A model generated the notes under the pieces. That model searched no databases and was not told the DNA's origin. It saw only the letters and a list, made by a program, of their open reading frames with translations. Below are positions 14,639 to 14,920 of a DNA stretch of 64,000 nt, in pieces. A program made the translations under genes and the position numbers. Within the stretch, counting starts at the first letter, position 1. Each line of letters opens with the position of its first letter. The DNA is from Deltaproteobacteria bacterium (GTDB lineage Bacteria > Desulfobacterota > Binatia > Binatales > Binataceae). The DNA is taken from positions 87,065 to 151,064 of the forward strand of contig JAKBMB010000029.1 of assembly GCA_021831785.1 (NCBI GenBank). Direction: 5' to 3'.

Positions 14639-14920
14639 GGTCATCCTGAGCGCCCCTGCGCTGTGATGCTGGACCCCTGCTTTGTCATGCTTCACTGCGT
14701 TCAGAGCCTGTGAATTTTTAGCCCTGAAACGAAAATCAATCTTAGTGGGGCGGGCCGCCGTGCCCGCCATGATGCGCGGGCGCCACGCCCGCGCGGCCAA
14801 TGACCACCCACCGGCCGGGCTGGCACCGCAGCCACAGGGCGGGCACGGCGGCCTGCCCTACTACTCAAAAATTCACAAACTCTCAGCATGACAAAAGAAA
14901 GAGGGTGCTCAGGATGACCA
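14639..14920. repeat. Long nested imperfect palindrome (about 280 bp) in an intergenic region
   Basis: Arms pair in mirrored order around a centre near 14790. The pairs are tggtcatcctgagcgccc (14639-56) with ggtgctcaggatgacca (14904-20); ttgtcatgc (14682-90) with gcatgacaa (14887-95); tgtgaattttt (14709-19) with aaaaattcaca (14867-77); and gggcgggccgccgtgcccgcc (14747-68) with gggcgggcacggcggcctgccc (14837-58). There is a central palindrome gcgcgggcgccacgcccgcgc (14774-94). Confidence 0.7.

Follow-up and report, generated by a model that had tools for sequence, protein, structure and literature searches.

The window studied here, that is, the whole stretch of 64 kb of DNA that was analysed, carries only housekeeping genes in its first part (positions 1–34000). 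They include lpxB, lpxI, bamA, ompH, lolCDE-like ABC genes, the gspD secretin gene, lpxL and moaA, as well as mutL, miaA, accA, pheA, an aminotransferase gene, tyrA, cmk, rpsA and the gene for GTP-PEPCK. No mobile-element genes were seen in these first 34 kb, and a tRNA/tmRNA scan gave no match. The lpxL gene (13507–14427; Pfam Lip_A_acyltrans) is followed by a gene encoding a DUF971/GBBH-like_N protein (15177–15512). The spacer between the two measures 749 bp, in agreement with the approximately 750 bp reported in the initial annotation.

This spacer contains a nested palindrome, which we found to be the strongest inverted repeat of the 64-kb window in a ranked list of such repeats. All four pairs of arms described in the initial annotation were recovered by our repeat search: 14638–14655 with 14903–14920 (18 nt, 94% complementary), 14681–14691 with 14885–14895 (11 nt, 100%), 14703–14719 with 14867–14883 (17 nt, 88%) and 14743–14792 with 14814–14863 (50 nt, 76%). 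The apex of the 50-nt pair is a perfect 9-bp hairpin (14774–14782 with 14786–14794). RNA folding, proposed earlier as a check, gave a minimum free energy for positions 14630–14930 of -173.4 kcal/mol on the plus strand (z = -11.7) and -168.4 kcal/mol on the minus strand (z = -9.7). Neither value was equalled by any of 100 shuffles, so that the palindrome is much more stable than shuffled sequence on both strands. The 69-aa ORF at 14682–14891 (plus strand), described from the start as looking spurious, is judged spurious here too: it has no Pfam match, lies inside DNA that is missing from sister strains (see below), and in other copies its peptide is kept no further than the conserved DNA.

While the nested palindrome is real, its boundaries had been set wrongly at 14639–14920. 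In a global alignment of 14522–14803 with the reverse complement of 14804–15050, which extends from the ends of the unit as far as its centre, identity was 75% across 219 columns. Since the two halves match along their full length as an imperfect inverted repeat, the true unit is 14522–15050, a 529-bp element with a GC fraction of ~0.61, and the 280-bp palindrome is the better-preserved interior of this fold-back unit. The element ends are marked by the outermost inverted pair (14518–14546 with 15026–15054). The terminal inverted repeats are 25 nt long and imperfect: the left one, GTGTCCCGTCCCGCAAATAAGTTGC (14522–14546, plus strand), pairs with the right one (15026–15050, minus strand; reverse complement GTATGCTGTCCCGCAGATGGCTTGC). 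The homology of the copies in contigs L009 and L031 begins exactly at the left repeat, and the right end type is shared by L002, L021 and L031.

Inwards from the left terminus, a consensus scan detected a terminator-like hairpin followed by a T-run (14601–14636, plus strand); it is found in the L009 copy as well, and a terminator function is putative. It is followed by the left-arm sub-repeats CTGGTCATCCTGAGCGCCC, TGTGATGCTGG and TTGTCATGCT (14637–14700, plus strand), recognized as inverted pairs and a direct repeat, and by the inner arm AGAGCCTGTGAATTTTT (14703–14719, plus strand), which pairs with 14867–14883 and is kept beside the core in L007, L009, L017, L019 and L031. The central GC-rich hairpin core (14743–14863), composed of a 26-bp stem and the perfect 9-bp apical hairpin (14774–14794), is flanked by TA on both sides. 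On the right, the inner arms AAAAATTCACAAACTCT and AGCATGACAAA (14867–14895, plus strand) form inverted pairs with the left arms. They are followed by four tandem units of 19–27 bp ending in GGAATGACCAA (14903–14990, minus strand), namely 14903–14921, 14922–14943, 14944–14970 and 14971–14990. These units, identified as direct repeats and by motif matches, read TTGGTCATYCY..GCGC on the minus strand; four are present in the right arm, and one clear and two degenerate ones in the left. Of the seven window matches to the motif TTGGTCATYCY, four fall within the element, compared with 1.7 that would be expected in the window as a whole. Tandem Repeats Finder gives the GGAATGACC array no score because its units are too divergent and variable in length; the evidence for the array comes from the repeat search and motif counts. 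In the L031 copy, the right-arm tandem array is 95% identical. A Pfam search of ORFs inside the element gave no match, and with blastn-short no other copy was found in the 64-kb window, where the element is thus single-copy.

Two LpxL variants from a 90% protein cluster led us to three contigs (L032, L033 and L034) that match the window on both sides of the element at about 95–98.5% identity; most segments range from 97.5 to 98.5%, and the lowest value, 94.9%, is that of the 4-kb left segment of L032. In all three, the lpxL-DUF971 spacer is 218 bp long and lacks the element. BLAST against these empty-site contigs stops at 14522 and restarts at 15050. The empty site reads GGCAATGTGC-TA-GCTCGGCC and the filled site of the window GGCAATCTGC-CA-[14522 GTGTCCC ... 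CATAC 15050]-TA-GCTCGGCC; aligned to each other, the target contexts are AATGTGC-TA-GCTCGG (empty) and AATCTGC-CA-[element] (window). The difference in spacer length (749-218 = 531) equals 529+2. The left copy of the duplicated target dinucleotide (14520–14521) reads CA and not TA, where the empty site has TA inside CTAG, while the right copy (15051–15052) reads TA and precedes the G that belonged to the original CTAG.

A second copy came to light when the element's open -1 frame was translated and compared with 5.8 billion proteins. The search returned one match only, P0121, a spurious gene call on another copy, and led to L031, a further contig of the sample from which the window sequence comes. 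Here, a 310-bp internal-deletion derivative lies between def and fmt (L031:5208–5517), and an NCBI MAG contig (L037:1973–2282) has the same filled site. The derivative retains both ends and the right arm, while most of the core and the left arm are gone at a short GCCCGCCCT homology. It is flanked by TA on both sides (AACCTCC-TA-[310 bp]-TA-GCCGCG), and the empty def-fmt site, near position 2200 of L036, reads AACCTC-CTAG-CCGCG. L036 originates from sample ERZ27237336, which is also the source of the empty lpxL-DUF971 site. Each of the two independent filled/empty pairs is thus clean, lies at CTAG and shows duplication of the target. At both sites the inserted length equals the element plus 2 bp or, in the alternative model, the element minus 2 plus 4 bp.

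The LpxL homologues are assigned by their sources to Candidatus Binataceae. In relatives with LpxL identities of 84%, 77% and 77%, the gene order secretin-lpxL-DUF971-moaA is kept, with spacers of 134, 178 and 215 bp, respectively. The syntenic comparison suggested earlier therefore identifies the element as an insertion that is missing from sister strains and relatives at the lpxL-DUF971 site. This insertion is polymorphic between strains that are about 95–98.5% identical.

We also looked for further genomic copies, as had been recommended for a test of the MITE (miniature inverted-repeat transposable element) option, and found them at other loci and in other MAGs. Short-read unitigs (Logan) with the same LpxL/DUF971 proteins end at 14550 and start at 14979. 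Contig L009 matches the window only from 14521 rightwards and L007 only from 14743 rightwards; L003 departs from the window after 15000 and L002 after ~15051. In L002, ~11 mismatches fall within the 531 nt of the element versus ~1 in the 4 kb upstream, and another copy is ~98% identical across the full element length. These breaks, copy switches and L002 mismatches indicate that assemblers jumped between near-identical copies of a repeat covering ~14521–15051. The flanks of L002, L003, L007 and L009 differ, and at least four distinct flanks or loci were distinguished among the metagenome contigs of the same sample set. The joins at which these four contigs switch copies are likely chimeric or, alternatively, real recombinants between copies. 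As for the neighbors, a p450 gene is located upstream in L009 and an Asn-synthase region in L007, and L003 enters unrelated ORF-like sequence after 15000.

The wider family was searched for with a 22-mer from the core. In genome_contigs, it had three matches (L016, L017 and L018), among which L017, from a 'Deltaproteobacteria' MAG, is a real homologue and L018 a chance match in coding DNA. Three matches were also obtained in metagenome_contigs (L019, L020 and L021), of which L019 and L021 are real, and none in viral_contigs. An exact 29-nt piece of the left core arm (CGGGCCGCCGTGCCCGCCATGATGCGCGG) occurs alone and intergenic in L016:1802–1830, and L020 (1153–1181) carries the same sequence; L016 belongs to 'Proteobacteria bacterium Centralia_MAG_278', and the rest of the element is absent around this piece. 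A terminal-repeat pattern search of viral_contigs returned L035, a 19-nt chance match, and a distant-mode search of the plasmid collection with the whole spacer gave no match.

We found that the aligned copies are built from recurring modules: two end types, a left block with the hairpin and T-run, unit arrays, TGTGAATTTTT arms, an optional 44-nt spacer and the core. Both end types are seen again in L002, L009, L021 and L031, and copies occur full-length, deleted or truncated at several loci. TA flanks were noted at 7 of the 9 scored ends, compared with 2.3% TA among the window dinucleotides (binomial P ~1e-10), and these are mostly in a CTAG context, CTAG accounting for 0.1% of window positions. 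Relative to the outer arms, the 44-nt spacer and core are found in either orientation (L009 vs. L031), which would be the expected product of recombination between long inverted arms. A compact, degenerate copy of ~308 bp (L021:3790–4097) lies near ORFs that contain the domains Glyco_hydro_108 (phage-type lysozyme) and Gly_rich_2. The surroundings may thus belong to a prophage, by which the element could have spread. In L007 (2476–2566), the left arm, including two GGTCATTCC units, repeats the right arm almost perfectly in inverted orientation, representing either a real, more symmetrical variant or a fold-back assembly artefact. The same contig carries an unrelated palindromic repeat (L007:2150–2270; ctgcaccccctcaccc ... 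gggttggggtgagggtgcag) beside a truncated core copy (L007:2007–2150), and it seems that the organism carries several palindromic-repeat families nesting in one another.

Taken together, positions 14522–15050 very probably represent a copy of a MITE, a DNA transposon that is non-coding and non-autonomous, flanked by its duplicated target. Terminal inverted repeats, a target duplication, the lack of coding capacity, multiple copies and a stem-loop match the definition of prokaryotic MITEs (PMC10969869, PMC2229807). For our element, the terminal inverted repeats are present, the duplication is demonstrated by the empty site, and no coding capacity was detected. Prokaryotic MITEs are typically shorter than 500 bp and AT-rich, although these traits are not obligatory (PMC10969869); the 529-bp element has neither, while its 310-bp derivative falls within the size range. 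The MITE option raised in the initial annotation was right, as borne out by the two filled/empty pairs and the extra copies, but the arms it took for terminal repeats (tggtcatcc...) are internal, and the real ends lie ~115–130 bp further out on each side. We propose that the element inserted into the TA of 5'-CTAG-3' in the lpxL-DUF971 spacer and thereby duplicated its target, the cutting and pasting presumably being carried out in trans by a DDE transposase that would bind the terminal repeats. The 280-bp palindrome would then be the fold-back body, with two inverted arms that carry tandem GGTCATYC sub-repeats on either side of a GC-rich hairpin core.

On balance, the mobilising enzyme appears to be of the TA-duplicating IS630/Tc1-mariner type, an assignment towards which we lean only slightly. 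A preference of IS630 for CTAG is reportedly named in the title of a 1991 article by Tenzen and Ohtsubo. For IS630/Tc1-mariner elements, insertion takes place at TA, which becomes duplicated (Feng & Colloms 2007, PMC2170065). It is from insertion at TA, together with the CTAG preference, that we infer cut-and-paste in trans by such a transposase. Because the element starts with G and ends with C, a 2-bp TA and a 4-bp CTAG duplication give identical junctions, and both filled/empty pairs, lying at CTAG, fit a 4-bp duplication equally well. It is therefore possible, albeit doubtful, that the MITE is derived from and moved by an IS5-group element acting at CTAG/YTAR with a 4-bp duplication, in which case the element proper would be 14523–15049 (527 bp). 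In support, MITEPsy1, related to ISPsy2 of the IS5 family, has CTAG or YTAA as its insertion site and duplicates 4 nt (PMC3189936), and IS5-group elements with 4-base CTAG direct repeats are known (PMC9241763). Against it stands the L021 copy, flanked by T-TA-G... and ...C-TA-A, i.e., by TTAG and CTAA, respectively, which gives TA/TA and no 4-bp repeat; it is the only copy that favours the 2-bp over the 4-bp duplication, and it is old and degenerate. In addition, the termini would begin TGTCC/TATGG, whereas the ends of IS5-group elements in ISfinder usually begin GA or GG. No transposase was found beside the copies in L007, L009, L019 and L021, and no autonomous element with the same ends in the copy neighborhoods, the first 34 kb of the window, or the plasmid and viral-contig searches. 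At the right end of L003, a '...LAYNLTRA...' motif raised the suspicion of a transposase remnant, but the candidate had no Pfam match at E up to 1 and was rejected.

The core itself invites other readings. Each arm of its stem is REP-like, with GTRG followed by GGCGGGC-CGCCGT-GCCCGCC, and the two form an inverted doublet. REP sequences, as described by Nunvar et al., consist of a GT(A/G)G head and an imperfect palindrome (PMC2817692), a layout that inspection revealed in the core arms only (14745–14768 and the reverse complement of 14838–14861). With the heads GTGG on the left and GTAG on the reverse-complemented right, each followed by the palindrome, the inverted arms form a hairpin, and the left half of the core is the most conserved module across copies. 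One could thus picture a REPIN/BIME-like unit, in which the core is an inverted REP doublet moved as single-stranded DNA by a RAYT (an IS200/IS605-like tyrosine transposase) and the outer layers are older REP-type material. We regard this as very unlikely: at either polymorphic site, what moved was the complete element, bounded by its outer inverted repeats and with a target duplication; every core copy found sits within the arms of the larger element; and although almost the entire core is gone from the L031 derivative, its outer ends and a perfect target duplication are still there. IS200/IS605-type transposition is not known to make a target duplication, whereas this element has one. Nor did we see a RAYT beside the copies or a high copy number, with one copy in the window and three matches of the core 22-mer in each of the genome and metagenome collections. 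A two-tier composite, in which the 121-bp GC-rich core is either a nested REPIN-like/Correia-like, TA-targeting mini-element or a conserved cargo hairpin (protein-binding or sRNA), is also unlikely, if less so. It is suggested by the TA flanks of the core, its REP-like arms and its left 61 nt, which are 95–100% identical in L007a, L017, L019 and L021 where the arms and ends have drifted beyond alignment; part of this conservation is due to ascertainment, since those copies were found with the 22-mer from that very stretch. Changes in the 9-bp apical hairpin are confined to the loop across copies. Under such a composite, the GGTCATYC units would constitute a second set of binding sites, and the whole would be a bacterial fold-back-type transposon with an internal function instead of a plain IS deletion derivative.

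The very stable fold predicted on either strand and the terminator-like hairpin with its U-run (14601–14636) could also speak for a gene of a structured non-coding RNA or for an RNA that regulates lpxL or DUF971-moaA in cis; a structured RNA was among the options of the initial annotation. We judge this extremely improbable, as the element is absent from the about 95–98.5% identical strains and from all relatives at lpxL-DUF971, and the same sequence is found between def and fmt. Rfam had no match in the whole window at gathering thresholds and, in the spacer at E up to 10, only a 15-bit chance match to a snoRNA outside the element. Fold stability is about the same for the two strands, and the mismatches have no strand asymmetry (9 wobble-compatible on the plus and 14 on the minus strand, with 32 transversions). 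A consensus fold of five core copies, in which the L021 row is partly misaligned, yielded no useful covariation: the covariation term was unfavourable, with 1 of 46 pairs changed on both sides. A locus-specific RNA is thus largely refuted. Practically no credence can be given to a locus-specific operator or cruciform, or to a fold-back assembly artefact, although palindromic symmetry would fit the former and the suspiciously perfect inverted left arm of L007 may reflect the latter. The operator once suggested is contradicted by the dispensability of the element in the about 95–98.5% identical sister strains and by its presence at an unrelated locus and at others. As for an artefact, the window version is identical in independent ENA and JGI assemblies, with L001, L008 and L010 being 100% identical and at least ten more places similar.

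With the MITE as the preferred reading, its effect at the lpxL-DUF971 locus is probably neutral. The element starts 94 bp past the lpxL stop codon and lies ~60 bp upstream of a promoter-like block of DUF971-moaA; both lpxL and the DUF971 gene are intact, and sister strains do without the insertion. The block (15109–15141), CCCTTGCTTAC-N8-TTAGGCCGATCATT, is kept upstream of the DUF971 gene in the relatives L022, L024, L027 and L029, whose spacers are otherwise unalignable, and judging from its sequence it looks like the DUF971-moaA promoter (TTGCTT-17-GATCAT). A sigma-70 consensus scan of the spacer called no promoter, this block included. If transcribed from lpxL, the hairpin at 14601–14636 and the ~250-nt hairpin could stop or destabilise read-through, or serve as an RNase target. 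An apparently recent transposon insertion accounts for the odd 750-bp spacer, so there is no need to seek a regulator of lpxL/moaA or an RNA gene there. The element represents a new MITE family, of a kind already well known, in Binataceae-like bacteria, which are uncultured and represented by MAGs only, and the family has apparently been active recently. It breaks or mis-joins metagenome assemblies at lpxL-DUF971, which has practical weight for binning and strain tracking, for which its presence or absence is a clean strain marker. For a bacterial MITE, the length of 529 bp, GC-richness, full-length fold-back, sub-repeat arrays and very conserved central hairpin are unusual, and such an architecture could inform how bacterial MITEs are built.

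In its architecture alone, the element recalls Foldback (FB) transposons, as almost its whole length is a hairpin with arms made partly of tandem sub-repeats. FB elements are eukaryotic, much larger, and have another target duplication, and their long inverted arms also consist partly of tandem short sub-repeats. The GTRG heads, GC-rich imperfect palindromes and inverted doublet hairpin of the core arms are shared with the REP/REPIN and RAYT system (PMC2817692), in which a cognate RAYT gene is flanked by REPs and copies often exceed 100 per genome. In contrast, our element has terminal inverted repeats and a target duplication, and no RAYT, high copy number or solitary REPs were seen. The Correia/NEMIS elements of Neisseria share no sequence similarity with it and are 100–155 bp long with an IHF site, yet they resemble it in TA termini, inverted repeats of ~24–26 bp, internal-deletion variants, whole-element hairpin transcripts and possible terminator or processing effects (PMC2229807, PMC10969869). 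With the IS5-group MITEPsy1 of Pseudomonas syringae it has in common the CTAG target, terminal inverted repeats and presumed mobilisation in trans (PMC3189936), but MITEPsy1, 100 nt in length, makes a 4-nt duplication, whereas in our element the clean sites do not distinguish 2 from 4 bp and a single old copy is in favour of 2 bp. Finally, it can be set beside the IS630/Tc1-mariner MITEs, exemplified by RUP of Streptococcus pneumoniae, which is linked to IS630-Spn1. Unlike RUP, it is five times longer (529 vs. 107 bp), GC-rich instead of AT-rich and equipped with sub-repeat arms and a conserved GC hairpin core, and no IS630 partner with matching ends was found for it. Still, both are non-coding and TA-flanked, with imperfect terminal repeats of ~25 nt, and both are intergenic, form a long stem-loop and are present or absent between strains (PMC2229807, PMC2170065).
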